Shown piece after piece: positions 1 through 24,000 of a stretch of 24,000 bases of DNA; positions within the stretch are counted from its first letter, which is position 1, and every line of letters begins with the position of its first letter. Source of the stretch: Promethearchaeota archaeon (GTDB taxonomy: Archaea > Asgardarchaeota > Lokiarchaeia > Sigyniarchaeales > Promethearchaeaceae). Made by a program: the position numbers and the translations under genes. A model generated the notes under the pieces. It was given only the letters and a program-made list of their open reading frames with translations, was not told where the DNA came from and ran no database searches. The stretch lies in NCBI GenBank assembly GCA_004524545.1, contig SDNX01000012.1, forward strand, positions 11,281-35,280, written 5' to 3'.

Positions 1-1130
1 GTACTAGACAAACTACCTGCTGCTGCTGCAGAGGAGAGAAACATCTCTGTCATGAGAGAAGTAGTGGATCCATGATCATCGCAGATTAGCATGGAAAAAT
101 CGAATGTGCGATTAGCATCAAACATTTCTATAAAGAAGGGGACTTCCGCAAGCGGATTATAGGTTTGTTTCGGGTCAAATACTACAAGACAGACACTTCG
201 ATTCATTCGTATCAACGAACTTAAAGAGGATTGAACCGCATAAGTTTCATATCCCATGGATTCTACATATTCTCTAAACTCGGAATTACCCGTGGGTCGT
301 GTATTGTATACCGAATGATCTCGATAATTCATACCTCCATCAATAATATGGCCCAAAAGAGGAATCCATGCAAAAATAAATAACACGACTAGCAAAGCCT
401 GTTGAATTCCCCACGAAGACTTTTTTGAACGTCGAAATTCCCGTATAACCCTTAAACCATTCATCACCAGCCTGATAACATATATTGCAGGGAAAATGTA
501 CATTACAAAACTAATCATAGTTTCATAACCAGACGCTCCGAGAAAATCAATGCCAGGTTGTAAGAATGCAGAGATGCTGGCGAGTATACCGAAAATGTGA
601 ACTAATATAATTAACACCCAAATTACTACTATCATAGAATCTGATTCGGGATCTAAATCACTAAAGGATTTTTGCATCCGATTGATGGTATTGAAACTCA
701 TGATATACCAAAACAGGCCAACAACTCCTTCTACAATCATTACAGGAGTAATATAAGACGTATCAATTATGATATATCCCAATAATTCAACTATGTATCG
801 GGACATGTACGCCATATACAATCCTAACCAGATGAACATGATAGTGTTACACAGGATAGGAACAACCCGTGGCCATTTTTTCTTAATAATCAAACAAATT
901 ATAAACACACCAATAGCAATATAGACGGGGAGCATTGCCGAAAAACTGAAATTTTCATCTGCGAGGAAGATTTCTAATACCATGGCTAGGGCGGATTTAT
1001 TTTGACCTGGGAATTGAACAAAAATCGAAAGAAACAACAATCTAAGTGCAGTACCCATAGGAGACTGAAACCTATAGTACCCTTTCTGTCGTTTTCGTCT
1101 CTGTTTCTTTTCCTTTTTGTCTTTTGCCAT
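1..1130 (-). CDS. Polytopic membrane protein with C-terminal DUF4350-like soluble domain (partial; 3' end runs off the left edge)
   Basis: Absent from the ORF track because it has no stop inside the window. Hand translation of the minus strand from the ATG at 1130-1128 (MAKDKKEKKQRRKRQKGYYRF...) stays open to position 3 (376 codons). It has a Lys/Arg-rich N-terminus and about 6-7 hydrophobic helices. A soluble segment follows (...NYRDHSVYNTRPTGNSEFREYVESMGYETYAVQSSLSSL...VCLVVFDPKQ...MLICDDHG...) that resembles DUF4350 (PF14258) from memory, so the family call is tentative. The start is 27 nt downstream of the preceding gene. Confidence 0.6.
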   Translation of the reverse strand, partial: MAKDKKEKKQRRKRQKGYYRFQSPMGTALRLLFLSIFVQFPGQNKSALAMVLEIFLADENFSFSAMLPVYIAIGVFIICLIIKKKWPRVVPILCNTIMFIWLGLYMAYMSRYIVELLGYIIIDTSYITPVMIVEGVVGLFWYIMSFNTINRMQKSFSDLDPESDSMIVVIWVLIILVHIFGILASISAFLQPGIDFLGASGYETMISFVMYIFPAIYVIRLVMNGLRVIREFRRSKKSSWGIQQALLVVLFIFAWIPLLGHIIDGGMNYRDHSVYNTRPTGNSEFREYVESMGYETYAVQSSLSSLIRMNRSVCLVVFDPKQTYNPLAEVPFFIEMFDANRTFDFSMLICDDHGSTTSLMTEMFLSSAAAAGSLSS

Positions 1131-1157
1131 ATAGATCCCTATCTGATTGACTGATTA

Positions 1158-1529
1158 TTACAAATTTAAGGAGGGAAGTCGATGTCCACTCATTTCCCGA
1201 TAGATATTCCCAAAAGATTCAACAATTTGCATGAAAAATTCCGGTGTAGAAGGATATCCTCCATAAATTGCTTTTTCGATCTGTTGGATGAACGGATAGA
1301 TATTTGCAGGATCCTGTCCATGTTGTTTTACCATGATGATTGCAAAATCTCTCACAGTTTGGGAAAAGGTTTTGCGAACTCCATATTTTTGCAATGCTAG
1401 ATCTGTGTAGATTGTATACATATAGGCAATGGCTTCTTTCAATCTGCCGGTATTGTATAGAAGCTTCACATTTTTAAGTTTTGAAGAAACGTTTAATTCT
1501 TCTTGTTCATCTTTCTTTTTTCGTGCCAT
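1158..1529 (-). CDS. Small soluble DUF4129-like protein, a free-standing paralogue of the cytosolic tail of the upstream 538-aa protein
   Basis: 123-aa ORF with a GAGGG Shine-Dalgarno-like motif 6 nt upstream of the ATG. It is about 55% identical by hand alignment over ~100 aa to residues 434-538 of the 1617..3233 product. The shared core is FAIIMVKQxGQxPxNIYPFIQxIExxIYGGYP. The helical pattern ending in an 'xxIYGGYP' motif matches my recollection of DUF4129 (PF13559). It has no hydrophobic segment. Confidence 0.75.
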   Translation of the reverse strand: MARKKKDEQEELNVSSKLKNVKLLYNTGRLKEAIAYMYTIYTDLALQKYGVRKTFSQTVRDFAIIMVKQHGQDPANIYPFIQQIEKAIYGGYPSTPEFFMQIVESFGNIYREMSGHRLPSLNL

Positions 1530-1616
1530 GTAAAACCCTCTAAGGTTTTTGTTTTTTTTTTTCTTGGAATAATGTTGTAGAGTTTTTATGTGCTAAATAA
1601 TTGTCGTGAACTTCAA

Positions 1617-3233
1617 TTAATTAAGTTGGAATGAGGGAAGTGGTTTATCCATCAATTCCAGATAAATTCGACCAAATACCTCAACCGTATGTAAGAAGAC
1701 TTGATCGTTAAAGGGATATCCTCCATATATGACTTGTTCAATTTCTTGGATAAAGGGATATATATTTCGAGGATTTTGTCCAAACTGCTTTACCATAATA
1801 ATTGCAAATTCTGTCGTAGTTTGGGAGGCTTCTTTCTCAATCCCGAATTTTAATTGTGCAATTTCAGTATAGGTGACATACAAATATGCAAGTGCTTCTT
1901 TCACTCTCCCCATTTTGTAGAGCATTCGAACGTTATTGAGACGGTCTTCTATTTCCTTTAGTAGAAGCCCTATATCTTTTTGCGCGCGTTTTTTCATCAA
2001 CCAACGCTGAAAGAAGAATATACCAACAATTACTCCAACAGCACCCACACCTATGACGATAAATTCCCATGGAAGATTTGTAAACGCGGTCGGAGCCCGA
2101 ATTCTGACAGTTTGTTGATAGATCAATATTCCACCAGGAACGACTTCAACATTGCCATTCGAGTAATAAGAAAGTACCGTGACTGTAATAGTGTAAGTGC
2201 CGGTTATGTTTGGTATTAGATAGTAGGGTCCAAGAAATCTTCCTCCTACACTCAAAGTCCCGTTATATAACATGACATTCACACTATCACCAGTTAATGT
2301 AATTGTTATATAGGAACCATTTAGAGCATATCCGCCCCCCGCTTGCACCACATTCCCATTGATAGAATAATTTGTGTTTTGGTAAATAGTTCGACCAATA
2401 TTATCAAAATCGACTTCTATACCGGTAATAATGTTAAATTCTTGTGGTTCTGAGGTATCAGCTGATAAGGCTGGAGTTCCTGGCCAGTTTAGAGTATAAT
2501 ACTCATATGCAGCATTGTGCGGTATTTCTTCATAAAAATACCCCGTGTCACTCACGGTGATATTGGGACCTTGGGTTCCCGTTCCTATATCACCATACCA
2601 TAGTTCTAAATCAAAACCAAATAAACTCGTATAAGGGGAACCCGTTAGAGTGTCTTCAACTACCCCTGATACTGGATAGAAAGTTGATCCTGAAAGCGTA
2701 GGTTGTGGATTAGCAGTAATTTGTATATCGGCACCTGAAATAAGGTATAGATCCAATTGATTGGAACAGTTTGTATCGTAGCCTCCTTGGGTAGTGTTTG
2801 CTTGGATATAATTTAATCCACTGAGAAAGGTATCTGCATCTGCTGTGAAAGGTAGAGCAAAATTCCCCAATCCATCAGTATTTGTCACTTCAGAGGAAAC
2901 TATATCCCCATTTACAACTAATACAATTTCCCCCACATATGCATCCCATGCAGCCCCATTCCATTTAAGTGCATATCCATTCAGTGTTACACCTTCTCCA
3001 TCAGATACATAGGTTTCACTTATACTTGTAAGGGTAATATTCCCTGTAATCGTACGAATTGACGCAGATGGAGATTTTTGATTCAACTGATTTGGTGTAT
3101 CATTAGGAGGGTTAAACATTATAAATGAAGCAAAAAATACGAGGGCAATTCCAAAAACGCATAATAAAACTTTTTGAATCTGTAGGGAATGTCCTATAAG
3201 ATGCTTTCGTAATGAGGGGTTGGATTTGGACAT
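1617..3233 (-). CDS. Bitopic surface protein: N-terminal TM, ~350-aa beta-rich ectodomain, second TM, cytosolic DUF4129-like tail
   Basis: 538-aa ORF with an AAGGAG Shine-Dalgarno motif (3241-3246, minus sense) 7 nt upstream of the ATG. TM1 is around aa 21-40 and TM2 around aa 389-413 (WEFIVIGVGAVGVIVGIFFFQRWLM), followed by KKRAQK, consistent with positive-inside topology. The ectodomain is Thr/Asn/Gly/Tyr-rich and carries a TNTDGLGNFALPF motif typical of prealbumin/CarboxypepD_reg-like beta-sandwiches. The tail (aa 414-538) is paralogous to the 123-aa ORF. Confidence 0.8.
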   Translation of the reverse strand: MSKSNPSLRKHLIGHSLQIQKVLLCVFGIALVFFASFIMFNPPNDTPNQLNQKSPSASIRTITGNITLTSISETYVSDGEGVTLNGYALKWNGAAWDAYVGEIVLVVNGDIVSSEVTNTDGLGNFALPFTADADTFLSGLNYIQANTTQGGYDTNCSNQLDLYLISGADIQITANPQPTLSGSTFYPVSGVVEDTLTGSPYTSLFGFDLELWYGDIGTGTQGPNITVSDTGYFYEEIPHNAAYEYYTLNWPGTPALSADTSEPQEFNIITGIEVDFDNIGRTIYQNTNYSINGNVVQAGGGYALNGSYITITLTGDSVNVMLYNGTLSVGGRFLGPYYLIPNITGTYTITVTVLSYYSNGNVEVVPGGILIYQQTVRIRAPTAFTNLPWEFIVIGVGAVGVIVGIFFFQRWLMKKRAQKDIGLLLKEIEDRLNNVRMLYKMGRVKEALAYLYVTYTEIAQLKFGIEKEASQTTTEFAIIMVKQFGQNPRNIYPFIQEIEQVIYGGYPFNDQVFLHTVEVFGRIYLELMDKPLPSFQLN

Positions 3234-3240
3234 TCTGATA

Positions 3241-3300
3241 CTCCTTTTCTTTACGGGTAATTATAAGTATGTGTTAGTTATTTTTTGCTAAATATATAAT
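3241..3300 (-). promoter_or_regulatory. Possible internal promoter (TATA-like ATTATATATT) and AAGGAG ribosome-binding site for the 538-aa gene
   Basis: The minus-strand sequence ...ggattatatatttagc... (3291-3300) lies ~60 nt upstream of the ATG at 3233. AAGGAG lies at 3241-3246. Confidence 0.3.
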
Positions 3301-3340
3301 CCGTGTATGGTCTATGTTATTTCACTAGTTATTGAGGAAG

Positions 3341-3347
3341 AAAAAAA
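3341..3347 (-). terminator. Oligo-T tract (T7 on minus strand) 4 nt after the stop of the transglutaminase-like gene
   Basis: The minus strand reads TGA-agaa-TTTTTTT-cttcc. Archaeal RNA polymerase terminates at oligo-T runs. Read-through into the next gene cannot be excluded. Confidence 0.35.
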
Positions 3348-3351
3348 TTCT

Positions 3352-6300
3352 TCATGAGTAAGTTGCCTGTACTTCATCACCATTAATATAGTTAATATCA
3401 TCTTGCACATATTCTACGTAGATCGAATCCACTGACCATAGTACCGTAGTAGAATAACTGAAATTACCTAAACCATCTGTTGTAGCTGTATCTGAATAGA
3501 GTAATGTACTCGAACTGTCATAAAATTTAATGATCACAGTAACACCTGCCAATGCGGTGCTGTTATCATATGTCAATGTTCCATCCACATATACAGGTTG
3601 TCCTGCATAGAGAATTTGTGGACTATAGGTAGCAGTTAAGCTAACATCGGCATATACCGTTTGAAGGCTTTCGGAAGAAAGATCTGCTAATCCTACATCA
3701 AAATTACTTCCGGGGCATTGAATCGAGTAATCTTGCTGATCTCCCGTAAAGTACACGGTGATCCGATACACACCATGGAATGAAATTGGCATTCTCCAGA
3801 CAAAAGCAAACAATCCTGTCGTTTGGTCAGAAATGATATAGCTACCAGGGGTTCCAGGTAACCACGTGATAATGTCACCGGTTCTATCCGTTCCTCCAAA
3901 ATCCCTCACATACAATTGAATACCTGCACCTGTTACAATTTTATCGTTCAGAGTATCACGAACATAACCAGATATAGATACTTGACCACTATTTCTAACG
4001 GATGTTGCACTGGGGGTTGAAACCAGATCAACATACATAGCATCATCCAAAAATACTTGGGTATAATTCTTAATCGTATTATGGGATACACTTAATAGGT
4101 TCAGACCCGCAACATGAGTGGAATCTAATGTGACAAAGAAGGAGGCTCCTCCTGTTGAATTCGTTATTGTGCTATCCAGATCGATACCTAAAGTCTCATC
4201 TCGGAGAGTCACTAGAGCTGATGTTTTTATTCCCAGTCCTTCCCACACTCGAACATCAATTCGTACAACATCGTTTCGATTATAGTATGGAGCAGTACCA
4301 AAATAACTTCCTTGAGTTGGAGAGTAATCTATCCACATTTCGATTATTATATTAGTGGGATCATTAATTGTTAAAGATACAGGACCATCTGCATCCGTGA
4401 AAGCGGGATCGGAAATTAATTGGTTCCTCGAGTTAATTAGCTGCCAATCGCCGCCAAATCCTACATAGATATCATAAATTCCTATGGGAGTTGCGGGATT
4501 TACTCCGTAGGTAGCTGAAAATTGACCATTCCCCCCTACGTTCATATATGTCGGATCTCCAGTGAGAGAGCTTGTATAATCGGTCGGACCTTGTCTCATT
4601 TGAACCCCTACATACCCATAGCGGACATAATCGGCTACTCCAGAATCCCACAGATACCCATCCACATCAAACGTCATCTGCCCACCACCCGTCCGGTTAA
4701 TAAGACCAGGAGTGACCGAAGTAAGAATGATTTCCATAGTTTCATCCACAATTAAATAGAACGATTGGTTTAACCTACCTGCTCCTACCCAATATCCGTA
4801 TAATTCATGTACTCCTGCCTTCCAGTGATGATAATCAGAGGAAAGGGAATACATCATACTACTCAACCCAAAGGAATTGGTGGTTAAAGTTCCCACAATG
4901 TAATCATCATAGGTTTTATCTCGTATCTGTACTTGACCATTTATTACCGGAATACCGGCTTGTTCTAAATAGACATTAAACGTCATGGAATCGGTATCTC
5001 GATCTTTATGGAAGGTATCTTCTTGGAAATATGTTGAGTCTACATCCAAATTAAACACTTTTTGGTTATCATCAATAATTTCAAATGAATACGTATTGCT
5101 GGACGCATCGTTTACTAATGGAATTGTAATACTTTGTGGAGTTCCATATAAGGGATTGATTATTTCATAGGTTCCATTGAAATCCACTCGGAAGTCATAG
5201 ATTCCTTGGGCAACATATTCAGAGATGGTTACAGTTTCAGATATCGCACCATTCATATCTACTTTAATATCAGCAGGAATAACGCTAGTAGGAATTGCTG
5301 CTTTGTGGTATGCAAGAACAGGGTGAAGCATCGCATTTTTCACGCGATTATTGTTCACGGGATCATAAATATAAGCAGATATGTGAGTATCGTTCGTAAT
5401 ACTTCTATTGATAGAATTTGGGATGGGAGCACCTGTCATTTGAATATTCACACTGTCGGCAAGAACGACTGCACACGCATTTTGTTGAAACATTGAATGT
5501 TGAACTCCAATAAAATGAGCTCCCACAGTAAATGAATTGTCCATTACTACATCATAGTTTGCGTATCCATTTCCATCGGTCCATACCGATCCGAGGGAAA
5601 CTTCCTCAGTATAATCGTAGAGTTCTAATTCTTGGGTATCGTTCGTGCCACTTTGTACTTCTCCAAGTTCAAAATCTAAATGAGCAGTATATCCTCTAAA
5701 TCCTTGCGTATAGGTAGAGTAAGTTCCATTAATCCGAATGTTTAGTGGGGCGTCAGAGGGATCATCAGGTCCTGAAGGTAAAGTTAATGAAGGGGATAAA
5801 ATGAACGGAGCAAATTCCCCATTTCCAAAACCATCGGTCACAAAATATATTTCATTCCAAGCATCCATATTGGACAATTGAATTTCACGCATATCCCAAC
5901 CGTTGTAATAAGGATCGGTTGTATCACTGGAATACCGAGAATTATAACCTGCGGTATATCGACAAGGGATATCGAACCATCGGCAGAACATGACAAAAGC
6001 GGCTGCAAAATCCATGGGTAATCCTTCTCCCCGTTCAAGGAACCATTCTACAATATCTTCTCCACTCCCAGGACGCTCAAGCGGGAAAGTGAGATCTAAA
6101 CCGAAATTTTCCACAATATACGTACGAATAATATCGGCAACGGAATAGGTATCCGAAGTACTTCCGATTAATGTGGAAAGATTGGTTACATGAGAACTGA
6201 AATACGGATGGTCATTGTAATAGCCTACTTTATCATCATCCGGGAATTGAGTATATAAATTCATGATTTGAGCTGGTGCAAGGGATGAGCCATACCCATT

Positions 6301-7098
6301 GTTATATATCATTTCATCGGGTTTCGGCGTATAATATAGACCGTATGTTAAATTTCCTGCCGTATTTGTATTCAAAGTATAGGTGGCAGTTGTTCCTTTT
6401 TGGGAGTCGACAGCTAAGTCAAAAGAATTCATAACATCAGTATTACTTGGATCTTCTCCTCTCACATACGTAATTTCAGGTTCCGAAAAACCAGAAGGTA
6501 AAGCCATAGTACCTCCATTTGTTTCTCCAAATGGGATTCTAATCACATAATCTTCTGTAAATGTTGTTGGAACCGTGGAGGTTGGATTATTAAGTGTATT
6601 AGATCTAGCCCATCCATCCCCTGTATACTCATCATATGCAGAATACCGCCATAAATCGTCATCAGAGATAGTTGCTGCTCGTGGATATACACGAAACATC
6701 ACAGTGTTGAGTTGATCCAGATTAGTAATATTACCGAACAAACCGGCTAGGAAAGGTAATCCAGAAAGCAGGTCCAGCAAGTTGGAATCAAAGAGACTCC
6801 AATCATCTGGCGGGGTGAAATTTGGAGGGGCTATGGCATCCAAATCTACATCTACCCAAGGATGACCATCCAAAATATCAACGGACCTGTATTTATCTTG
6901 TTGGAAAATCCAATTTGTTACTGCTGCTGAGAGATACCATCCCCCGATTACAAGAACGACAATAATACCTAAAGAAATCAGTTGCTTCTTTAAACTACCT
7001 TCAGGTTTAGATTGATCCGGTGACATATTTCCATACCTTATGATTGTTTTTTTACTGTAAGAAAAGAGCCTATATCTGTTTATGAACGAATACTCCAT
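3352..7098 (-). CDS. Giant N-terminally anchored surface protein with a transglutaminase-like core (catalytic triad substituted) and ~800 aa of beta-sandwich repeats
   Basis: 1248-aa ORF. The likely true start is Met25 (ATG at 7026-7024), which is preceded by AAGGT, whereas the ATG at 7098 has no SD. A single TM lies around aa 40-62. The transglutaminase-core signature is recognisable at aa ~355-436 (GLPMDFAAAFVMFCRWFDIPCRYTAGY ... MDAWNEIYF ... GEFAPFILSP). The C-terminal two thirds contain recurring T-[DN]-x-x-G-x-x-x-[FY] motifs: TDGNGYANY, TNSFGLSSMMY, TNSTGGASFF, TTGLFAFV and TTDGLGNFSY. A T7 tract follows the stop. Confidence 0.85.
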   Translation of the reverse strand: MEYSFINRYRLFSYSKKTIIRYGNMSPDQSKPEGSLKKQLISLGIIVVLVIGGWYLSAAVTNWIFQQDKYRSVDILDGHPWVDVDLDAIAPPNFTPPDDWSLFDSNLLDLLSGLPFLAGLFGNITNLDQLNTVMFRVYPRAATISDDDLWRYSAYDEYTGDGWARSNTLNNPTSTVPTTFTEDYVIRIPFGETNGGTMALPSGFSEPEITYVRGEDPSNTDVMNSFDLAVDSQKGTTATYTLNTNTAGNLTYGLYYTPKPDEMIYNNGYGSSLAPAQIMNLYTQFPDDDKVGYYNDHPYFSSHVTNLSTLIGSTSDTYSVADIIRTYIVENFGLDLTFPLERPGSGEDIVEWFLERGEGLPMDFAAAFVMFCRWFDIPCRYTAGYNSRYSSDTTDPYYNGWDMREIQLSNMDAWNEIYFVTDGFGNGEFAPFILSPSLTLPSGPDDPSDAPLNIRINGTYSTYTQGFRGYTAHLDFELGEVQSGTNDTQELELYDYTEEVSLGSVWTDGNGYANYDVVMDNSFTVGAHFIGVQHSMFQQNACAVVLADSVNIQMTGAPIPNSINRSITNDTHISAYIYDPVNNNRVKNAMLHPVLAYHKAAIPTSVIPADIKVDMNGAISETVTISEYVAQGIYDFRVDFNGTYEIINPLYGTPQSITIPLVNDASSNTYSFEIIDDNQKVFNLDVDSTYFQEDTFHKDRDTDSMTFNVYLEQAGIPVINGQVQIRDKTYDDYIVGTLTTNSFGLSSMMYSLSSDYHHWKAGVHELYGYWVGAGRLNQSFYLIVDETMEIILTSVTPGLINRTGGGQMTFDVDGYLWDSGVADYVRYGYVGVQMRQGPTDYTSSLTGDPTYMNVGGNGQFSATYGVNPATPIGIYDIYVGFGGDWQLINSRNQLISDPAFTDADGPVSLTINDPTNIIIEMWIDYSPTQGSYFGTAPYYNRNDVVRIDVRVWEGLGIKTSALVTLRDETLGIDLDSTITNSTGGASFFVTLDSTHVAGLNLLSVSHNTIKNYTQVFLDDAMYVDLVSTPSATSVRNSGQVSISGYVRDTLNDKIVTGAGIQLYVRDFGGTDRTGDIITWLPGTPGSYIISDQTTGLFAFVWRMPISFHGVYRITVYFTGDQQDYSIQCPGSNFDVGLADLSSESLQTVYADVSLTATYSPQILYAGQPVYVDGTLTYDNSTALAGVTVIIKFYDSSSTLLYSDTATTDGLGNFSYSTTVLWSVDSIYVEYVQDDINYINGDEVQATYS

Positions 7099-9169: not shown

Positions 9170-10072
9170 ATGAAAGCTGCAACAAAACTAATGGAAATGG
9201 AAACAGAAGACATTAGAATTTTAGCAGCTGTAGAACTGGGAATGAAAAAACACGAAATGGTTCCCATTAAGCATATTTCTTATTTCGCACGATATGAATT
9301 GGAAGAAACTGAATATCGTTTGGATCGTGTGCATAAAATGGGGTTATTACAAAGGAATAAAGTAGGTTCTGTCGCATATTGTCTCATTAGCGAGGGATAC
9401 GATATCCTTGCACTTCATACCCTATTCAGTCAAGGATACATTGAATCCGTAGGACCTCCCTTGGGAAAGGGAAAAGAATCTGATGTGTATCGTTGCTTAA
9501 CTAAAGATAATGAGCAAGTAGCACTAAAGGTGCATCGACTTGGTCAAACAAGTTTCCGAAGCATACGGAAATTTCGTTCGTATATTGACGAACGAACGCA
9601 TACCTCATGGCTATATATCAGTCGTCTATCTGCGAAGCGTGAATTTGAAGGATTGAAGCGCGTTGCCAAATTAAATTTAAGAACTCCAAAACCCATTGCA
9701 CAAAACCGTCATGCAGTTGTAATGAGTATTATTCAAGGGGAAGAAATTAGTAAATTTGATGAATTAAATGATCCCGATGTGCATTTCAACAAGATAGTAG
9801 GAGAGTACAAACTTTTCTTTTCGAAAGCTCATGTAATTCATGGAGATTTGTGCGAGTTCAATATCTTACTGGATCCAGATGATAATGTGCTGATAATAGA
9901 TTGGCCCCAATGGGAAGATTGGAATCATCCAAATGCATTAGAGTTGGTAACCAGAGATATAACTAATTTATGCACCTTCTTCCAGAAGAAGGGAGTAGAA
10001 TCCAATTCTGATGAAATTATTCGAGATATTATGCAGTTAAATCCTAAATTCCGAGAACAAACCAAAAAATGA
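9170..10072 (+). CDS. rio2: RIO-type serine/threonine protein kinase Rio2 (N-terminal winged-helix plus RIO domain)
   Basis: 300 aa. The N-terminal ~90 aa are wHTH-like (EDIRILAAVELGMKKHEMVPIKHI...). RIO motifs are GKGKESDVY, LKVHRLGQTSFR, HGDLCEFNILL and IIDWPQW. Confidence 0.9.
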   Translation: MKAATKLMEMETEDIRILAAVELGMKKHEMVPIKHISYFARYELEETEYRLDRVHKMGLLQRNKVGSVAYCLISEGYDILALHTLFSQGYIESVGPPLGKGKESDVYRCLTKDNEQVALKVHRLGQTSFRSIRKFRSYIDERTHTSWLYISRLSAKREFEGLKRVAKLNLRTPKPIAQNRHAVVMSIIQGEEISKFDELNDPDVHFNKIVGEYKLFFSKAHVIHGDLCEFNILLDPDDNVLIIDWPQWEDWNHPNALELVTRDITNLCTFFQKKGVESNSDEIIRDIMQLNPKFREQTKK

Positions 10073-11286
10073 GAGGAAATATGACACAAAAAGTACGACG
10101 AACCTTATTTACTCTGTCTGTTTTAGGGGATTTAGGAAATTCGCTATTATTGGTTACTTCAATTGCATACGGTGTCACTCTCACAACTGATCCTCTTATT
10201 GTTGGATTTATTGGAGCCGCATATGGATTTACCTATTTAATAACTCCTGGTATTTTGGGTTGGCTAGGAGATAAGTTTCCTCGAAAAACCAGTCTATTGA
10301 TCGCATCCTCAGGGCAAACCATTATTGCGATGATATTGTTCCTATTCGCAAATTCTCCATTAATCTTGATTTTAGGACAAATCGGATTGGGTATTGTCTA
10401 TGGATTTTTTTGGCCCTCAATTGAAGCTTATACATCCGAAATCTCTATACCTAATACCACTCAGAGTTGGGAACACTCCCATAAAAAAAGTATTTTAATG
10501 TTTTGCATTGCATGGTCTATAGGATATATGATCGGGCCACTTCTTGCCGGGGTTTTTAGTGATTATTTTCTTTCAGGTGCTTTCATTACAGTTATTATTG
10601 TTTATCTTACCGAAATCATTCTTGTGGTAATAAATCTACCAAAACTTAACACTCATTCCCCTATGACGAGTCAAGAAATAAATGAGAAGAATGATCTAGA
10701 AGAAAATGACTCTACTAGGCTTAAACAAAACACGATTTCATTATTCGAATTGATAGTGACTATTTTTTTATATTCATTTCTTTCCAAAACAATATTCACG
10801 TATTTTGCGGATTATTCTTTGGATCCCCATGGATTACAATGGACAGAATCCCTTATGGGTATTGTAATTTTCATGTTTGGTCTGGGTAGAACATTATATT
10901 TCATCGTAAACTATGTTTGGGTCCATGTACGAAGTACGATGAAGCTAATCTTATACACATTTTTGGGTATGGGACTGTGTTTGATGAGTATTTCATTTAC
11001 AAAAAATCCCTTCATCATGTCGATTATTCTACTGTTTCTAGGAATTGGAGCGGGAATCGTATATTCTTCAGCTTTAGATCTCATGTTACAGCAAACCCAG
11101 AAAAGAAAAGGTGCTAAAGCGGGAATTTTTGAAAGCATGGTCGGTCTCGGGAGTATTTTGGCTCCTTTGGTTGCAGGATGGATTGCTAGAAAGACTATCC
11201 TGACAATTCCTTTTTATGCGTTTGCGGGGTTTACTTTTGTAATTTTCTTGATATTTTTCTTATTGGAATATCTAAGGAAAAAATAA
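10069..11286 (+). CDS. MFS-type transporter (about 12 TM)
   Basis: 405 aa and highly hydrophobic. An MFS motif-A-like sequence, GWLGDKFPRKTSLL, follows TM2. The ATG at 10069 overlaps the rio2 stop (ATGA). The alternative ATG at 10081 is preceded by GAGAGG. Confidence 0.8.
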   Translation: MRGNMTQKVRRTLFTLSVLGDLGNSLLLVTSIAYGVTLTTDPLIVGFIGAAYGFTYLITPGILGWLGDKFPRKTSLLIASSGQTIIAMILFLFANSPLILILGQIGLGIVYGFFWPSIEAYTSEISIPNTTQSWEHSHKKSILMFCIAWSIGYMIGPLLAGVFSDYFLSGAFITVIIVYLTEIILVVINLPKLNTHSPMTSQEINEKNDLEENDSTRLKQNTISLFELIVTIFLYSFLSKTIFTYFADYSLDPHGLQWTESLMGIVIFMFGLGRTLYFIVNYVWVHVRSTMKLILYTFLGMGLCLMSISFTKNPFIMSIILLFLGIGAGIVYSSALDLMLQQTQKRKGAKAGIFESMVGLGSILAPLVAGWIARKTILTIPFYAFAGFTFVIFLIFFLLEYLRKK

Positions 11287-11733
11287 TTATACTTCTGGTG
11301 GAGATTTTTGCTCCAATTCAGGAAATTGCTCCAATATATCACGATGACGTTTCATTATCCGTTTTCTCCAAGGGTCATCGTCCGAAATATAATCTACTAA
11401 CTGATAGTTAGAGATAGTTTCCTTAGTTGGGTAGTATACCATTACTTCGTCCTTGCTTCCATCAGAATAGAGTACAGAAACGGGAATTCGTGAATAAAGC
11501 AACCCCTCATAATAATCGAGTTGGGCTAATCCCTTTTGATCCACATCGAATACCAAGCCCCAAAAGCCTTTTTTTGTATTGGAAGAATCTAATTTGAGGA
11601 TAAAAGGAAATGGATCTAATGGGCGCTGAATTCTGATAAACCCAGAAAGAAATGCAGCACGGACATTTTGAAAATTCCGGTAAATCTCACTTGTAATGAA
11701 CGTGCCATATCCAAAAATCTTCATGATTCCCAT
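11287..11733 (-). CDS. Gamma-glutamylcyclotransferase-like (AIG2/GGACT-fold) protein
   Basis: The core reads MKIFGYGTF...GF.R...PFPFILK...GFWGLVFDVD...LDYYEGLLYSRIPV...VMVYY, matching the GGCT-like pattern (YGTL...G...D.yEg..Y.R). The track ORF extends to 11844, but its first ~37 codons overlap the Sm gene. I therefore place the start at Met38 (11733) or Met41 (11724). Confidence 0.65.
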   Translation of the reverse strand: MGIMKIFGYGTFITSEIYRNFQNVRAAFLSGFIRIQRPLDPFPFILKLDSSNTKKGFWGLVFDVDQKGLAQLDYYEGLLYSRIPVSVLYSDGSKDEVMVYYPTKETISNYQLVDYISDDDPWRKRIMKRHRDILEQFPELEQKSPPEV

Positions 11734-11764
11734 ACCATAACTGTTAAGGGTGGTTTGAAGTCTT

Positions 11765-12001
11765 TTAATCGGCCTGTGGCTTGATAAACAAGATGTTATT
11801 GCCGCGAATGAAGATTTCTCCGAATTTTGCAGTGACTGAGCCATCCATCATTTCTTTAGCATTTTCGATTATCATGTTCAGATAGTTATCGCAAATCTTC
11901 AAACGTCCAAGATATTCGATGCCATCTTTTAATCGAATTAGGATAGTAGAGTTGACTGCGTTATGTAATACTTTCAATGGATTTTTTGGATCTATAGACA
12001 T
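11765..12001 (-). CDS. Sm-like (LSm/SmAP) RNA-binding protein
   Basis: 78 aa. Sm1 is ILIRLKDGIEYLGRLKICDNYLNMIIENA and Sm2 is GEIFIRGNNILFI. Size and motif spacing are typical of archaeal SmAP. Confidence 0.9.
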   Translation of the reverse strand: MSIDPKNPLKVLHNAVNSTILIRLKDGIEYLGRLKICDNYLNMIIENAKEMMDGSVTAKFGEIFIRGNNILFIKPQAD

Positions 12002-12075
12002 CTTGTGATGTTTTTATAATTGAAGGAATTAAAATTTTACCTAATGCACCTTGATTTAATCGAGTTAAATTCCCA

Positions 12076-12843
12076 ATGAAACCCTCCCCTTTGGATTCTA
12101 AAAAAGCAGAACAAATGCGTAATGCCTATGATGGAACTTCGGAGTATTATGATTCTAGATACCGTCATATCCAATATCTGAAATACAGTATATTACTGCA
12201 TCAAATTATCAAGATTCAAAAATTACCCCAGATCCAGTTAAGGGGACTCGTTTTGGATAATGGAGGGGGAACTGGTTTATTTCTGGAATTTCTTCAGAAG
12301 TTATCAAAATTTTCAATAAGAAACTCAGAAGAAGACGAAAAAATTAACCAAATCCTTGAATTCACTTGTTATCTTATCAGTAAAAAATATAGAACTACGC
12401 CTATTTCCTTAATTTTTCCCCCAACAGTAATTTGTGATGTATCTTTTGAAATGCTGCAAATTGCGCGGAAATTTCAAGATAGTATTATGTTGTATGGGTT
12501 AGTTTCATGTGACAGTGCTCATCTTCCATTCAGGCCTTCTCAATTTTCCACGATCACGGCATTTACTGTATTCCAGAACATTGAAAACATTAATAAAGCA
12601 ATAGAAGAATCGCATCGTGTACTTGTCGATCAAGGATGTTTAGGAATTTCGATTTTAAAAAAATCTTACAATAAATTTCGGTTTGCAGAAATGTTGGGAA
12701 AATGCTTTGATGATATCTATCCAGTTAATTTTGAAAAAGAAAGGGGAGATTTTCAAAAAATGATAGTGCAAAATGGTAAATATTCCCAATTCTATGATCT
12801 CGAAAAGGTCGAAGATTTCTTCTTAACTGCAAAAAAACTCTAA
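12076..12843 (+). CDS. Class I SAM-dependent methyltransferase with an insertion after motif I
   Basis: Motif I is VLDNGGGTGLF. The post-I/II region is ICDVSFEMLQIAR ... DSAHLPF, followed by FSTITAFTVFQNI and HRVLVDQGCLGISI. About 40 extra residues lie between motif I and the post-I acidic residue. The substrate is unknown. Confidence 0.8.
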   Translation: MKPSPLDSKKAEQMRNAYDGTSEYYDSRYRHIQYLKYSILLHQIIKIQKLPQIQLRGLVLDNGGGTGLFLEFLQKLSKFSIRNSEEDEKINQILEFTCYLISKKYRTTPISLIFPPTVICDVSFEMLQIARKFQDSIMLYGLVSCDSAHLPFRPSQFSTITAFTVFQNIENINKAIEESHRVLVDQGCLGISILKKSYNKFRFAEMLGKCFDDIYPVNFEKERGDFQKMIVQNGKYSQFYDLEKVEDFFLTAKKL

Positions 12844-12853
12844 GGTTACAAAA

Positions 12854-13744
12854 ATGAAACTGTATGTATTTGAAACGGATAAATGGATGGAAAGTGATGT
12901 AATTTACCCTCATGATATTGCATTATGTTTAGTTCCAGAAAAGAAAAAAATCTACGTATGGGATGGGCCAAGAGCCACTTCAGAAAAAAAAACTCAAGCA
13001 CATGAAATTTTAGATGATGTTGCAGGGAAATACCCCTTATATTCAATCATTCCCGTAGATGGGGATACCCCCCCATCCATTACAGACTGCATTAATACAT
13101 ATGTGAACACAAGTTTTGAAGAAGTCGAGAAAATTGATCGTGATCCTCAGTATGTGGTCTTTTTTTATATGATGTTAGGATTAATTGTGGGACTGATTGT
13201 CGGATACATCATGATTTTACGGATTATTGGATGGAATAAGGTTCCTGGGCAACCTCTTCTAATAATAAGTACAACTGGTTTCGCTAATTGGGTAACCCAA
13301 AACATTATTGTTCTAATTATCTTAGCTAGTTTATTTTTTGTGAGCTTAATATTCGCCAGTTTGACACAAAAAATCTTTTTAATCATAACTGCAAGTGTAG
13401 GAGTTATCGTCTTAACAGGTACGATATTTTACTTCTATTTGGGGATCTATTTATTTGATTTCAAGCCAGGATCCCCAATTGGATATTATTACCTCTCAAT
13501 CGGTGCAGTTGTAGGATTCTTCTTCTTAAATTTGCTCGCATTGCTCGTAATTTTTACCCCAATGGTTATATCCTTATGGGCTATTTATACAACCACCACC
13601 CCCATCTCATGGGCAGACTGGAAAGAAAAACGGAAGAAAAAAGCTGTGGTAATGAAAAAGTTCTCCGTTTTGGACAGGGAATCGAAATTCACGGAGTTAG
13701 AACAAGATCTCGAAAACGAGACATCAGAGGAACAAGAATCTTAG
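12854..13744 (+). CDS. Membrane protein with N-terminal gelsolin-like domain, ~5 TM helices and a charged C-terminal tail
   Basis: 296 aa with AAGGT 8 nt upstream of the ATG, starting 10 nt after the methyltransferase stop. Residues 1-95 carry a gelsolin-repeat-like signature (DIALCLVPEKKKIYVWDGPRATSEKKTQAHEILDDV ... IIPVDGDTPPSITDCI). Hydrophobic helices span aa ~100-250. The tail is KEKRKKK followed by an acidic run. Confidence 0.7.
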   Translation: MKLYVFETDKWMESDVIYPHDIALCLVPEKKKIYVWDGPRATSEKKTQAHEILDDVAGKYPLYSIIPVDGDTPPSITDCINTYVNTSFEEVEKIDRDPQYVVFFYMMLGLIVGLIVGYIMILRIIGWNKVPGQPLLIISTTGFANWVTQNIIVLIILASLFFVSLIFASLTQKIFLIITASVGVIVLTGTIFYFYLGIYLFDFKPGSPIGYYYLSIGAVVGFFFLNLLALLVIFTPMVISLWAIYTTTTPISWADWKEKRKKKAVVMKKFSVLDRESKFTELEQDLENETSEEQES

Positions 13745-13750
13745 AGTTTG

Positions 13751-13789
13751 TTTTCTTTTTAATCGCTTCTCTATCATTTTCTTTTTATT
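13751..13789 (+). terminator. Two oligo-T blocks (TTTTCTTTTTA twice) after the gelsolin-like gene
   Basis: TTTTCTTTTTAAT at 13751-13763 and TTTTCTTTTTATT at 13777-13789, beginning 7 nt after the stop codon. This matches the archaeal oligo-T terminator pattern. Confidence 0.4.
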
Positions 13790-13947
13790 GACATTCTATG
13801 AATTATTGCGAAAACCTTTGGTAAACACTGTTCTTTAATAAAAATTCCCCCACTAAGATTTGTTAGAAACAAAAACACTTTTTAAGCTAAACAACAACAT
13901 AATCAACGGTATAAAGATTTTACACTTATATCGAGGTAAAAATTATA

Positions 13948-15489
13948 ATGGCTAAAAAAGGAATTGGCGGCGTGATTTCGGGATCTATTATCCTATTTCT
14001 CGGCGCTATTATTATAACTGCGGGAGTAGGCGGTCGTGCTATGGCTAATAGCTTCCTCATCGAACCCATGGTGGGATCCACGCTAGGAGACATAGAAGCC
14101 CAAGCTATCCCGGCTCTAGAACCTGCAATTCAGGATATGGCATATCCCCTCTTCTTAGATGGGGTATATACTCAAATGCAATATGCCTTTGGTGGAGATC
14201 CCGCTAATCTGGCGGCATTCATTAACGGAAGCACTGCGGCGGGAGCGATATACGCAACTGCAAATGCTTTACATCCAGCACCTTATGCAGATCTTAATGC
14301 AGCATTGGTAGGTCTCTTCAACGATAATATTTTAACTAACTATGGAACTCCAATCCCAGGTATCTCGGAATCTATGAATGCAGGAACTCCAATCGGATAC
14401 ACTCTTCCAATGGTTGGTGCACTCTGTATGGGTTCTGGCTCCCCACCATTCGTAGGTATTTTAGAAGAAGATCCTTTAACGGATGGAACTCCTGGAATAT
14501 TAGTGTTCCTTGCAACCTATCAAGCAGCTATGGCAGATCCACCCACAATGACAGCAATGCTCGCGGCATACGGTCTTCCAGCTCAAGCAATGTTAGATGC
14601 TGTTGCAGGATATATCACAATGGTCTTATTCCCAGCAGTTGGAGCTTTAATTACTGGAGCTTTAGGATGGAATGAAATGATGCCTGCTGCGACCTCAGCT
14701 ACTGTTGGAGATTATATTTTAGCACAATGGGCTCAAATGGCTTTGCTCCCCGGCGGATTAGGATCATTAGACGCAGCAGCAACCAATTTCGAAGTAGATA
14801 GTACATTCGAGAATTTGACTCAAGTGAAATCCGTGTGGAATTCTTTAATAGGCGGTGAATTCTTACGATGGTATGCAGGTGATACAACTTTAATTGGTGA
14901 TTTGAGTATCACACAGACTATCTATGATGATGTCGTTGATTGGCTCCCTGAAGTTCTACCTGTTGTTCTCATGGGTGTTGCTGGAGAATTTGGCTTGACA
15001 TACACCACCCCCGATGCATTGTATAAGGATTTATTCATAGGGCAATGGGGACATATCGGATATTTGTTAGATGATCCTCTCTTCTCAATGCTCGGATCTG
15101 ATTTGGTTTTCGAAATCGATTTTGCATATGTAGATCAATTATCACAAGCAGATGGTTTAGCTCTGTGGACCGATCTAACAAGTGAAGAAGGTATTAAAGA
15201 ATGGTTTGCTGCTGTCAATGATCGAGACGGTCCTGAGTATGAAGCAAAACAAGCAGAATTTGATTTAAATTTCGAACAAATGAAAAAGGTCGTGAATTAC
15301 TTAGCAGAATGGCGAGATAGTACTCTCTTTGCACTAAATATTCAAGAAGAAGAGATAGTTTTGCCTATCTGGGGTGCTGATCTTGGAGCAGCGTTGGATG
15401 ATCTTGAACTCTATCTTCCAATCGGTGGTGGAGTGTTCGCCTGCGCTGGTGTTCTATTAATTGCTTTGTTTGCTCGAAAACGAGCATAA
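13948..15489 (+). CDS. Orphan Ala/Gly/Leu-rich acidic surface protein with N-terminal and C-terminal hydrophobic anchors
   Basis: 513 aa with GAGGT 13 nt upstream of the ATG and a 200-bp AT-rich upstream region containing TATA-like elements. The N-terminus MAKKGIGGVISGSIILFLGAIIITAGVGG is a signal or anchor. The C-terminus is LPIGGGVFACAGVLLIALFARKRA. I recognise no family motif. Confidence 0.75.
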   Translation: MAKKGIGGVISGSIILFLGAIIITAGVGGRAMANSFLIEPMVGSTLGDIEAQAIPALEPAIQDMAYPLFLDGVYTQMQYAFGGDPANLAAFINGSTAAGAIYATANALHPAPYADLNAALVGLFNDNILTNYGTPIPGISESMNAGTPIGYTLPMVGALCMGSGSPPFVGILEEDPLTDGTPGILVFLATYQAAMADPPTMTAMLAAYGLPAQAMLDAVAGYITMVLFPAVGALITGALGWNEMMPAATSATVGDYILAQWAQMALLPGGLGSLDAAATNFEVDSTFENLTQVKSVWNSLIGGEFLRWYAGDTTLIGDLSITQTIYDDVVDWLPEVLPVVLMGVAGEFGLTYTTPDALYKDLFIGQWGHIGYLLDDPLFSMLGSDLVFEIDFAYVDQLSQADGLALWTDLTSEEGIKEWFAAVNDRDGPEYEAKQAEFDLNFEQMKKVVNYLAEWRDSTLFALNIQEEEIVLPIWGADLGAALDDLELYLPIGGGVFACAGVLLIALFARKRA

Positions 15490-22771: not shown

Positions 22772-24000
22772 TTATTTCTTCTCTTCTTGGACTTTTTTCA
22801 ATTTTTTCTTTAACTCAGATAATTTCTCTAGTGCGGAAAGCGGGGTAGTATTTTCAATGTCCAGTTTGTCTAAGTCTTCTATCACTTCAGCGTAATCTCC
22901 CTCAGTTAGAATGGTTTGTTCAATTGGAAATAACACGGTCTGCACGGGTTTTCTCTTAGACTTCCTATTCTCTTCAGGTTTTTCGGTACCTTTCTCCCTT
23001 TGTTGTTTTATAGAATCTTGTGAATGTGTTTCAGGTTCAGGTTTCTTCTCTTTTGCAGCATAATCCGTTTCTACCAAATCAAAAGATCGCTTAATAACCG
23101 GCTTAGGAATACCCGCCATGGACGCTACATGGATACCGTAGGATTTATCGGTCCCCCCCGGAGTGAGTTGCCGTAAAAATACCAGATTTTTTCCTTCTTC
23201 TCGTATAAGGAAGTGGTAATTCCTCATTCGTTCCAATTCAAGTTCAGTTAATTCATGGAAATGTGTGGAGAATAAGGATTTAACACGCATCCCATGTAGG
23301 CGTTCTAAAACTGCACGTGCAATTGCCCTTCCATCACTGGTAGAGGTTCCCCTTCCTAATTCATCAATAATGATTAAACTCTTTTGTGTCGCATAATGAA
23401 GAATTTGGGCGGTTTCATTCATTTCCATGAGAAATGTGCTCTGTCCATGGACTAAATCATCTGATGCACCCACTCGTGTAAATACTCGATCAACGATCCC
23501 GATCTCAGCGGAAACTGCCGGGACGTAACTTCCTATTTGTGCCAAAATCGTGATCAATGCTACTTGACGTAAATAAGTAGATTTTCCTGACCAGTTCGGC
23601 CCGGTTATGAGAAGAATTTGCTCCTTATTACAATCAATATAGCAATTGTTGGGAATAAACGATTCATTAAAATTGATATGTTCGATAACAGGATGTCTCC
23701 CTTGCTCGATAATTATTTTATCATCTTCTAGTATTGTGGGACGATTGTAATTATTTTCCGCTGCCACTTCTCCCAATCCGCAGAGAATATCCAACATTGC
23801 TATTTTAGAGGCATCTTTTTGAATTTCTTCAGTCTTCGAAGCGACATTTTCCCGTACCTTGGAAAAAATCTCGTATTCTACATCTTTTATGGTTTCCTCG
23901 GCGTTTAGTATCTTGATTTCAATTTCTTTAAGTTTTTCTGTCTGATATCTAGTTGCACCTTTCAAAGTCGCACGTTTCAGGAAATTTGGAGGAATTTTTA
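22772..24000 (-). CDS. mutS: DNA mismatch repair protein MutS (MutS1-type), C-terminal clamp/ATPase/dimerisation part; the N-terminus lies beyond the right edge
   Basis: Walker A is ITGPNWSGKSTYLRQV, Walker B is LIIIDELGRGTSTSDG, and STHFHELT is also present. A C-terminal ...TPLSALEKLSELKKKL helix is present. The reading frame stays open upstream of the track's TTG 'start' to position 24000 (..KIPPNFLKRATLKGATRYQTEKL), so the gene is truncated by the window. Confidence 0.9.
   Translation of the reverse strand, partial: KIPPNFLKRATLKGATRYQTEKLKEIEIKILNAEETIKDVEYEIFSKVRENVASKTEEIQKDASKIAMLDILCGLGEVAAENNYNRPTILEDDKIIIEQGRHPVIEHINFNESFIPNNCYIDCNKEQILLITGPNWSGKSTYLRQVALITILAQIGSYVPAVSAEIGIVDRVFTRVGASDDLVHGQSTFLMEMNETAQILHYATQKSLIIIDELGRGTSTSDGRAIARAVLERLHGMRVKSLFSTHFHELTELELERMRNYHFLIREEGKNLVFLRQLTPGGTDKSYGIHVASMAGIPKPVIKRSFDLVETDYAAKEKKPEPETHSQDSIKQQREKGTEKPEENRKSKRKPVQTVLFPIEQTILTEGDYAEVIEDLDKLDIENTTPLSALEKLSELKKKLKKVQEEKK

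Follow-up and report, generated by a model that had tools for sequence, protein, structure and literature searches.

A Lokiarchaeial gene cluster combining a predicted enzyme-dead transglutaminase fold with DUF4129 and DUF4350 proteins

What might four neighbouring archaeal genes build when, between them, they carry a transglutaminase fold, a pair of DUF4129 modules and a DUF4350 domain, and do they travel with the MoxR ATPase and DUF58 protein expected of such a set? The question is raised by a 24,000-nucleotide (nt) window of contig SDNX01000012.1 from a Promethearchaeota archaeon (‘the window’ being the whole stretch analysed, to which coordinates refer unless another locus is named). Its left 7.1 kb is filled by a cluster lying entirely on the minus strand; from upstream to downstream we call its members gene 1, g2, g3 and g4 (Table 1). 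The original prediction, made from the letters and their open reading frames (ORFs) alone, described four consecutive genes separated by 118, 87 and 27 nt, spacers that the ORF coordinates reproduce exactly. The answer we favour, and hold to be rather probable, is that the four genes represent the membrane/surface half of a Lokiarchaeial MoxR/DUF58(vWA)/TgpA-like/DUF4350 system, and that their products form one non-enzymatic surface complex with a cytoplasmic ‘handle’. The domain set itself is already known; what is new here is a version that is split and predicted to be enzyme-dead, whose DUF4350 protein is enlarged and which has come apart from MoxR.

A transglutaminase fold with an altered active site

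Working from the N-terminus of gene 1 onwards, we see that its longest ORF carries 24 extra codons absent from the consensus of its orthologues (12 Lokiarchaeial proteins, 34–96% identical), which open with ‘MSxDQxKPEGS’; because these begin at Met25, the true start is probably the ATG at 7026 rather than that at 7098. Eight Lys/Arg residues fall within the first 40 residues, ahead of a signal-anchor helix, and a Kyte-Doolittle scan of gene 1 finds no second hydrophobic segment; charges ahead of this single helix would place the N-terminus inside the cell and the remainder outside. By hydropathy, then, gene 1 has one helix and no polytopic DUF3488/TgpA_N domain, unlike TgpA, where DUF3488 provides five of six transmembrane (TM) helices (PMC3507681). 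At its C-terminus, Pfam and hydropathy find neither a TM helix nor a DUF4129 module, both of which g2 supplies in trans.

Within the predicted extracellular part, Pfam recognises a Transglut_core domain (PF01841; E 2.1e-12, 47.7 bits against a cut-off of 23), whilst TgpA_N remains sub-threshold (23.5 bits versus a cut-off of 30), its match limited to profile positions 209–279—the non-membrane part that lies just before the transglutaminase core. A phmmer search of the PDB with the N-terminal half of gene 1 returned no match; a family profile search succeeded instead, with Pseudomonas aeruginosa TgpA (6g49; E 4.7e-4) as the best relative of the core and 3isr next. When aligned to these two structures, the canonical G-x-C-x-x-F-A motif (‘GFCAHYA’ in 6g49, ‘GVCRDFA’ in 3isr) becomes ‘GLPMDFA’, the column of the catalytic Cys being occupied by Pro; this motif is invariant in all gene-1 orthologues and recurs in two fused relatives, P0018 and P0019, discussed below. 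The column of the TgpA His holds Asp in gene 1 and Tyr or Phe in relatives. Our check of the triad spans the Cys and His columns, the Asp position falling outside the alignment, so that the loss of the triad originally predicted is upheld for these two residues. With an invariant Pro in place of the Cys and an Asp in place of the His, gene 1 is predicted to be a pseudo-enzyme member of the transglutaminase fold, incapable of thiol chemistry; the site is dead in every family member, yet its surroundings are invariant.

The rest of the protein was expected to be some 800 amino acids (aa) of beta-sandwich repeats, and structural modelling agrees. An AlphaFold model of P0006, a gene-1 orthologue of 96% identity (pLDDT 77.9 overall), is all-beta over residues ~320–1115 (in gene 1, residue ~453 to its C-terminus), with pLDDT of 80–92 over most of this span, and Foldseek matches this tail to the macroglobulin (MG) arrays of alpha-2-macroglobulin, complement and TEP proteins (E ~1e-19). 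At the level of Pfam, we see a weak MG2 match in gene 1, together with Big_3_5 and CarboxypepD_reg in orthologues. With 1.2% Lys and an abundance of Thr, Asn, Tyr and Asp, the array contrasts sharply in composition with cytoplasmic proteins encoded in the window. N-glycosylation sequons reach 3–5 times the density of the cytoplasmic background; we rejected this as enrichment, since composition explains the density and shuffled controls were not exceeded. In the closest relative, locus L001, gene 1 (9674–13348) is called as two ORFs of 98 and 1115 aa, and g2 (13468–15082) likewise as two, of 257 and 243 aa; these pieces are 90–96% identical to the intact genes of the window, and probably represent frameshift errors of long-read assembly, pseudogenes being less likely.

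Gene 1 and g2 are best understood together. Because other archaea encode both as one collinear polypeptide, we read the pair as a split TgpA-like protein: P0018 and P0019 (2,036 and 2,076 aa) each carry a gene-1 part followed by a g2 part, with the TM helix and DUF4129 module in cis, the gene-1 profile matching residues ~80–520 of both (E 1e-32 to 1e-36) and the g2 profile the C-terminal ~430 aa of P0018 (residues 1598–2029; E 9e-14). Whether fused or simply read one after the other, the two reproduce the order anchor, transglutaminase fold, TM helix, DUF4129 that is seen in TgpA; they also share with the TgpA/YebA type (PF11992 + PF01841 + PF13559) the placement of the transglutaminase domain outside the membrane, 6g49 being the best solved relative. 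The differences are equally clear. TgpA of P. aeruginosa (PA2873) has transglutaminase activity in vitro and a transglutaminase domain placed by experiment in the periplasm, and is important for viability (PMC3507681), whereas the site of gene 1 appears dead (Cys to Pro, His to Asp); one N-terminal helix stands in for the five of DUF3488; ~800 aa of beta-sandwich have been inserted; and the protein is divided over two genes.

The DUF4129 pair and the DUF4350/GIFT protein

From its N-terminus, g2 comprises a hydrophobic stretch that could be a signal peptide or an anchor, an ectodomain of ~340 aa rich in Thr, Asn and Gly, a TM helix and, at its end, a helical module of 125 aa. This module shares 52% identity with full-length g3 and aligns with bona fide PF13559 (DUF4129) proteins. 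Scans with Pfam and NCBIfam gave nothing useful for g2 or the g4 fragment, g2 having no PF13559 match at E ≤ 1, and g3 itself falls below threshold (E 0.005, 17.2 bits against a cut-off of 24.8). Taken as a family, the picture is firmer: eight of the 14 aligned g3/g2-C-terminus modules match PF13559 (best E 2e-11), the g3 orthologue of locus L010 reaches its gathering score (24.9 bits), and the family profile in turn finds the DUF4129 end of a protein at locus L015 (E 3.8e-26). Marginal as the single-protein scores are, we consider the homology convincing, and predict that both g3 and the C-terminus of g2 belong to DUF4129, g3 being a soluble paralogue of the cytoplasmic module of g2; this agrees with the earlier proposal of one DUF4129 on a separate bitopic protein and a second, free copy. 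In nine of the nine Asgard-related loci examined, g3 lies directly upstream of the DUF4350 gene; L015 lacks the free copy. As an aside, the first helices of both DUF4129 modules (‘GRxKEAIAYLY’; within 1620–1997 and 1158–1529) weakly match designed TPR proteins in a PDB profile search (E 2e-4, with no individually significant stretch), which hints at a TPR-like helical hairpin.

The ectodomain of g2 had been described as Ig-like, a description we can follow only part of the way: CarboxypepD_reg matches in orthologues (E 1.1e-5 and 0.053) and a match of the g2 family profile to the beta-repeat region of the fused relatives lend it weak support, and comparison by hhalign of this ectodomain with the gene-1 beta array or with internal repeats gave probabilities below 5%.

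Turning to g4, its membrane domain consists of a Lys/Arg-rich cytoplasmic N-terminus and seven predicted TM helices, with positive loops at residues 84–88, 149–160 and 227–239 and connecting loops that fit the positive-inside rule; hydropathy, charge and the helices of the AlphaFold model thus concur with the six to seven helices first proposed. The part of g4 beyond the window edge was read from L001 and other full-length relatives, the 376 aa present being 96% identical to P0021 of L001, a protein of 734 aa. After the seven helices, full-length relatives (709–749 aa) have an alpha/beta ectodomain of ~320 aa, then one more TM helix and a linker rich in Lys and Glu; they end in a domain of ~115 aa that is helical, cytoplasmic and strongly conserved. 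A g4-like ORF at locus L009 (507 aa) stops before the C-terminal TM helix and this cytoplasmic domain.

Because only ~114 residues of the ectodomain are present, the window fragment finds no match in Pfam, and direct matches of the full-length relatives are marginal. A family profile of the ectodomain is more informative: run against 1.84 billion representatives, it retrieves 268 proteins (E ≤ 1e-3). Of the distant matches 70 were sampled, and every one carries PF14258 (best E 8e-34), with ABC_transp_aux in 50, IFT52_GIFT in 11 and OST48_N in two. On these profile matches, the ectodomain of g4 is assigned as a homologue of DUF4350/arCOG01314, as the original prediction had it in spite of the silent fragment. 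When the AlphaFold model of g4 is compared with the PDB by Foldseek, GIFT domains rank first, those of IFT52 and yeast Wbp1/OST48 (5fms, 5fmr, 6ezn_G, 6c26_B), with probabilities of 0.99–1.0 and weak E-values (0.017). The fold is thereby shared with GldG (ABC_transp_aux) and the N-terminal domains of IFT52 and OST48/Wbp1, at the level of the superfamily only; nothing places the Lokiarchaeial proteins nearer to eukaryotic GIFT members than to bacterial DUF4350 proteins and, unlike GldG, the cluster has no ABC transporter partner.

Canonical DUF4350 proteins have a signal peptide or single N-terminal TM helix, an ectodomain and one C-terminal TM helix, as set out in the account of arCOG01314 (Makarova, Galperin, Koonin 2015, PMC5898192), and those at loci L007 and L015 lack the polytopic domain of g4. 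The last of its N-terminal helices and its C-terminal TM helix are the counterparts of the canonical pair; g4 therefore differs by six additional N-terminal helices and the conserved ~115-aa cytoplasmic domain. A PDB profile search with this cytoplasmic tail and with the DUF4129 modules produced weak TPR-like or chance matches only.

Considered as a whole, the predicted arrangement, with large ectodomains outside the cell and DUF4129 modules inside, agrees with that first suggested, both hydropathy and the positive-inside pattern pointing the same way, and the Lys-poor, Thr/Asn-rich ectodomains fit an extracellular character; the trans-envelope assembly or signalling device that the original prediction drew from this arrangement is conjectural. 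Rates of change run in parallel: conserved cytoplasmic and membrane-proximal parts combined with fast-evolving distal ectodomains (Table 1) would fit an exposed surface structure.

Table 1. Features of the cluster and of the associated gene g7 (window coordinates unless a locus is named; identities are to the related locus L002)
Feature	Coordinates	Strand	Identity to L002	Basis and remarks
Gene 1	3352–7098	−	about 48%	Longest ORF, 1248 aa; 1224 aa from probable start Met25 (7026)
Gene 1, signal-anchor helix (residues ~40–62)	6913–6981	−		Kyte-Doolittle scan and charge count
Gene 1, transglutaminase-core fold, predicted catalytically dead (residues 312–423)	5830–6165	−		Pfam
Gene 1, invariant ‘GLPMDFA’ motif	6004–6024	−		Alignment to 6g49/3isr; Pro in place of catalytic Cys
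Gene 1, ~795-aa array of roughly 8 beta-sandwich (macroglobulin/Ig-like) domains	3355–5742	−		AlphaFold model, Foldseek
Gene 1–g2 spacer, 118 nt	3234–3351	−		T7 run, TATA-like box, GGAG
g2	1617–3233	−		ORF, 538 aa; bitopic, cytoplasmic DUF4129 module
g2, ectodomain			36%	
g2, TM helix (residues ~388–410)	2004–2072	−		Hydropathy; followed by ‘QRWLMKKRAQK’ (positive-inside)
g2, cytoplasmic DUF4129 module (residues ~413–538)	1620–1997	−	75%	Alignment with PF13559 proteins
g3	1158–1529	−	88%	ORF, 123 aa, no TM helix; free soluble DUF4129 protein; most conserved protein of the cluster
g4	from 1130, leaving the window at its left edge	−		376 codons present
g4, polytopic domain (residues 1–262)	345–1130	−		Hydropathy, AlphaFold helices, positive loops
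g4, DUF4350/GIFT ectodomain (first ~114 residues)	1–344	−	90% (start of domain)	Cut by window edge
g7	L003 21462–23054; L005 20672–22216; L011 6480–7925			Always after DUF58

A conserved core and a separable ATPase module

What lies beyond the left edge of the window can be judged from its relatives. L001, whose DNA is 91% identical to that of the window and collinear with it, has g4 (734 aa), then a gap of 400 nt and an aldo-keto reductase gene; L002 (gene 1 48% identical) likewise has the aldo-keto reductase after g4, and L012 (47%) an unrelated 467-aa membrane protein followed by the aldo-keto reductase. Neither MoxR nor DUF58 is found in the window or in the 5–10 kb after g4 in L001, L002 and L012, and a search of L001, L002 and the window for remnants of MoxR, DUF58 or g7 (see below) yielded none; the 467-aa protein of L012, considered as such a g7 remnant, shows no similarity to g7.

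In L003/L004 (gene 1 40% identical), L005/L006 (34%) and L011, g4 is directly followed by MoxR (AAA_3, bpMoxR), a DUF58/vWA protein (in L005, DUF58 at E 1.2e-28 and VWA_2 at E 3.9e-8) and a further gene, g7. The seven-gene order transglutaminase-g2-g3-g4-MoxR-DUF58-g7, with a class-II aminoacyl-tRNA synthetase next, is thus present in three more distant Lokiarchaeial species. The breakpoint between the two clades sits exactly after g4, for which reason the expectation that MoxR and DUF58 would be the next genes left of position 1 is right for the family and wrong for the lineage of the window; the broader link to MoxR/DUF58 neighbourhoods is borne out by these three relatives and by L015. The product of g7 (481–530 aa) is polytopic with a long charged central segment and belongs to no Pfam family; it seems to be a part of the MoxR–DUF58 module not previously described. 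Its DUF58 neighbours (L005 19351–20679, with equivalents in L003 and L011) begin with a TM hairpin and carry, ahead of the DUF58/vWA part, a beta-sandwich with weak TRAP_beta and BatD matches; these features match the ‘Ig-like + vWA’ description given for the arCOG01314 neighbourhood (PMC5898192). In the search for a relocated MoxR-DUF58-g7 block, a genome scan with the g4 profile yielded only three loci, and a metagenome scan with the g7 profile one, at a contig end.

Further afield, the cluster is pared down or rearranged in instructive ways. L009 and L010 retain g2-like, g3 and g4-like genes, with no recognisable transglutaminase or MoxR nearby; L007 has the fused gene (P0019), then a 129-aa DUF4129 gene (E 9.8e-11) and a DUF4350 gene (E 3.4e-11); and L015 places a canonical DUF4350 protein between a beta-sandwich–TM–DUF4129 protein and MoxR–DUF58. 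The contig of P0018 (L014) ends at the fused gene. Flanking genes differ in L007, L009, L010 and L015; still, the TM–DUF4129 and DUF4350 genes are adjacent in every locus examined, with the free DUF4129 between them except in L015. Conservation of gene order in related archaeal genomes, a test the original prediction had set itself, is therefore seen for g2-g3-g4, even amid different flanks, and we take this trio to be the invariant core, with gene 1 a frequent N-terminal extension and MoxR-DUF58-g7 a separable module.

The spacer between gene 1 and g2 deserves separate mention. A run of seven T (3341–3347) lies just past the gene-1 stop, a TATA-like ‘TTATATATTTAGC’ (~3287–3299) about 55 nt ahead of the g2 start, and GGAG 8 nt ahead of the g2 ATG; L001, L002 and L012 share ‘TATTTAGC’, ‘CTAACAC’ and ‘GGAGTA’, with flanking proteins of only ~48% identity. 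The spacer may thus hold an internal archaeal promoter for g2-g3-g4, plus a terminator.

Outside the cluster, the window holds genes of ordinary archaeal housekeeping type, encoding a thymidylate kinase, a cyclophilin, the RIO2 kinase, a four-subunit pyruvate:ferredoxin oxidoreductase and MFS transporters, the first three, upstream of gene 1, being conserved in most Lokiarchaeial loci. Close protein relatives are recorded as Lokiarchaeota or Promethearchaeota, and a scan of the region for RNA genes, tRNAs and tandem repeats found none. Two plus-strand genes without a Pfam match (12854–13744, 296 aa; 13948–15489, 513 aa) keep their positions in L001 and L002 (314/514 and 298/503 aa). At the right end, ORF 22772–23965 (397 aa, TTG start) contains MutS domain V (E 2.8e-76) and a mere fragment of domain III; this could reflect a short MutS-like ATPase or a mis-set start. 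Amongst the relatives, the L009 trio (12041–14485; Promethearchaeota PPR_0005 scaffold) stands next to Cdc6/Orc1 and FtsZ genes, and in L005 a gene for an Arf/Gtr1-RagA-like small GTPase (4718–5683, 321 aa) precedes the cluster by a few kb on its upstream side; it is a typical Asgard ‘eukaryotic signature’ gene and probably has no connection with the cluster. PADLOC defence models matched none of the four proteins, nor MoxR or DUF58; only g7 gave a match (LmuB, E 0.008, chance level), and an anti-phage defence reading was rejected.

Weighing the possible roles of the cluster

Systems of this general type have been described before, so that the original phrase ‘still unknown function’ should not be taken to mean a wholly unexplored type. 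For the archaeal DUF4350 (arCOG01314) neighbourhood, which comprises MoxR, an Ig-vWA protein and Ig-like surface proteins, section 3.2 of PMC5898192 proposes a novel secretion or membrane-remodelling complex; for the MoxR-vWA-TGL operon (TGL, transglutaminase-like), membrane-proximal proteolysis has been proposed, with inactive TGL domains as peptide binders (Zhang and Aravind 2012, PMC3495828). We found no paper pairing DUF4129 with DUF4350 in a full-text literature search.

As far as the arCOG01314 system is laid out in that account, our cluster shares with it a membrane-anchored, extracellular flavodoxin-like/GldG-like DUF4350 protein and Ig-like membrane or surface proteins, the latter represented by the beta-sandwich array of gene 1 (the evidence for g2 being weaker); an adjacent MoxR and Ig-plus-vWA (DUF58) protein occur only in the more distant Lokiarchaeia. 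Relative to the same description, the Lokiarchaeial loci add a transglutaminase-like component and DUF4129, and the ATPase module is detached in the clade of the window; a PF07760/arCOG02884-type protein was absent from the cluster proteins scanned. The seven-gene relatives also resemble the MoxR-vWA-YebA(TGL) operon in their trio of MoxR, vWA and membrane-linked transglutaminase-like protein, unlike which (an active TGL facing the cytoplasm being proposed there) the TGL domain of gene 1 is predicted to be inactive and extracellular; what may be transferred from that work is the idea of an inactive TGL domain as peptide binder. Finally, the bifidobacterial PFNA cluster (pkb2, fn3, aaa-atp/MoxR, duf58, tgm; PMC8430577) combines, co-directionally, a large Ig-like (FN3) surface protein with MoxR, DUF58 and a membrane transglutaminase-like protein, differing in that it is bacterial, includes a Ser/Thr kinase and has no DUF4350 or DUF4129 gene described.

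In the surface complex that we favour, the four products would assemble into a single, non-enzymatic, membrane-anchored structure. The well-conserved GIFT domain of g4 might serve as its membrane-proximal scaffold and the fast-evolving ectodomains of gene 1 and g2 as the exposed parts facing a ligand or neighbour, the dead transglutaminase cleft offering a peptide-binding site; the tethered and free DUF4129 modules, together with the g4 tail, would form the cytoplasmic handle through which a MoxR AAA+ chaperone and its vWA adaptor could assemble or remodel the complex. In the lineage of the window, the MoxR/vWA pair would then be encoded elsewhere, or the complex would now be independent of the ATPase.

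Saying this, several points weigh against such a complex. Physical association of the four products is deduced from fusion and adjacency only, and topology from crude hydropathy and charge rules. In the window, L001, L002 and L012, the cluster has no MoxR, DUF58 or g7 beside it. The g4 model reaches only a moderate pLDDT of 67.5, its Foldseek match combining a probability of 1.0 with that weak E-value of 0.017, and the g4 tail is not established as a third DUF4129 (hhalign probability 9%, E 0.0036). With L009 and L010 lacking a recognisable transglutaminase gene, gene 1 may not be a core subunit at all but an accessory or a cargo; and the conserved T-run and TATA-like box suggest that it may be transcribed separately.

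These last observations lead to the main rival, which we consider unlikely though worth keeping in view: a protein secretion or membrane-remodelling machine, as in the arCOG01314 proposal, in which the DUF4350 and DUF4129 proteins (and a MoxR/vWA pair encoded elsewhere) would form the translocation apparatus and gene 1 its cargo, or a secreted adhesin. The GldG link to gliding and type IX secretion, and the Ig-like surface proteins nearby, are the grounds given in section 3.2 of PMC5898192; a gene 1 that is dispensable in L009 and L010, evolves fast and may have its own transcription unit would suit a cargo. The fused relatives P0018 and P0019 speak to the contrary, the gene-1 part being there the same molecule as a core component and not free cargo; moreover, no channel-forming or Sec-like component was identified, and the ATPase is not adjacent in the window clade.

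Transmembrane sensing strikes us as improbable. Here the ectodomains would bind a ligand and the TM helices relay this to the DUF4129 modules, which would switch partners (g3, the g4 tail). The bitopic architecture, a conserved cytoplasmic helical module with a free paralogue, and the weak TPR-like signal in its first helices are all compatible with this, as is the tie between the same gene set and a Ser/Thr kinase in PFNA. Against it, DUF4129 has no known signalling activity, and in or beside the cluster, across the loci examined, there is no kinase, phosphatase, cyclase, DNA-binding or other output domain.

We attach still less weight to an ATPase-independent, structural Asgard surface organelle for contact with other cells or partners, with gene 1 carried on a GIFT scaffold. 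Since a MoxR-type AAA+ (in relatives), an inactive TGL domain and a GIFT domain come together in it, such an organelle might also have a specific kinship to the eukaryotic proteins bearing these modules (dynein/midasin, ciliary TGL proteins, IFT52/OST48). Specific support is lacking, because bacteria and other archaea widely possess the same domains and because the g4 family matches DUF4350 rather than IFT52 or OST48 profiles.

An enzymatic system, whether for membrane-proximal ATP-dependent degradation (vWA recruiting, MoxR unfolding, a peptidase cleaving) or for surface cross-linking, can claim the published model for MoxR-vWA-TGL operons and the in-vitro activity of TgpA; with Pro in the Cys column and Asp, Tyr or Phe in the His column of every member, a transglutaminase domain predicted to lie on the other side of the membrane from the cytoplasmic MoxR, and no MoxR adjacent in the window clade, it is very improbable and close to refuted. 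That the four genes are functionally unrelated and merely held together by regional synteny is hardly credible: synteny here is indeed high, the upstream thymidylate kinase, cyclophilin and RIO2 genes being conserved too, and an internal promoter may separate gene 1 from g2, but the g2-g3-g4 order survives between entirely different flanks (L007, L009, L010), gene 1 and g2 are fused elsewhere, and the downstream breakpoint falls exactly after g4 rather than within the cluster.

For the wider family, the MoxR-DUF58-TgpA-DUF4350 set is among the most widespread uncharacterised envelope neighbourhoods of prokaryotes. The Lokiarchaeial version would bear on it in several ways: transglutaminase chemistry would be dispensable, because the site is dead across the whole family; a TgpA-like protein can be divided exactly between its beta-sandwich array and the part comprising the last ectodomain, TM helix and DUF4129; the core that does not vary is DUF4129, DUF4129, DUF4350; and the ATPase module can be uncoupled genomically. 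Taken together, they favour a function in scaffolding or binding over an enzymatic one, and single out the cytoplasmic DUF4129 modules as the likely interface. For the Asgard archaea, the cluster adds a concrete candidate for large, exposed surface proteins in lineages whose envelope and cell–cell contacts are central to models of eukaryogenesis, a context in which it may, speculatively, have a place.

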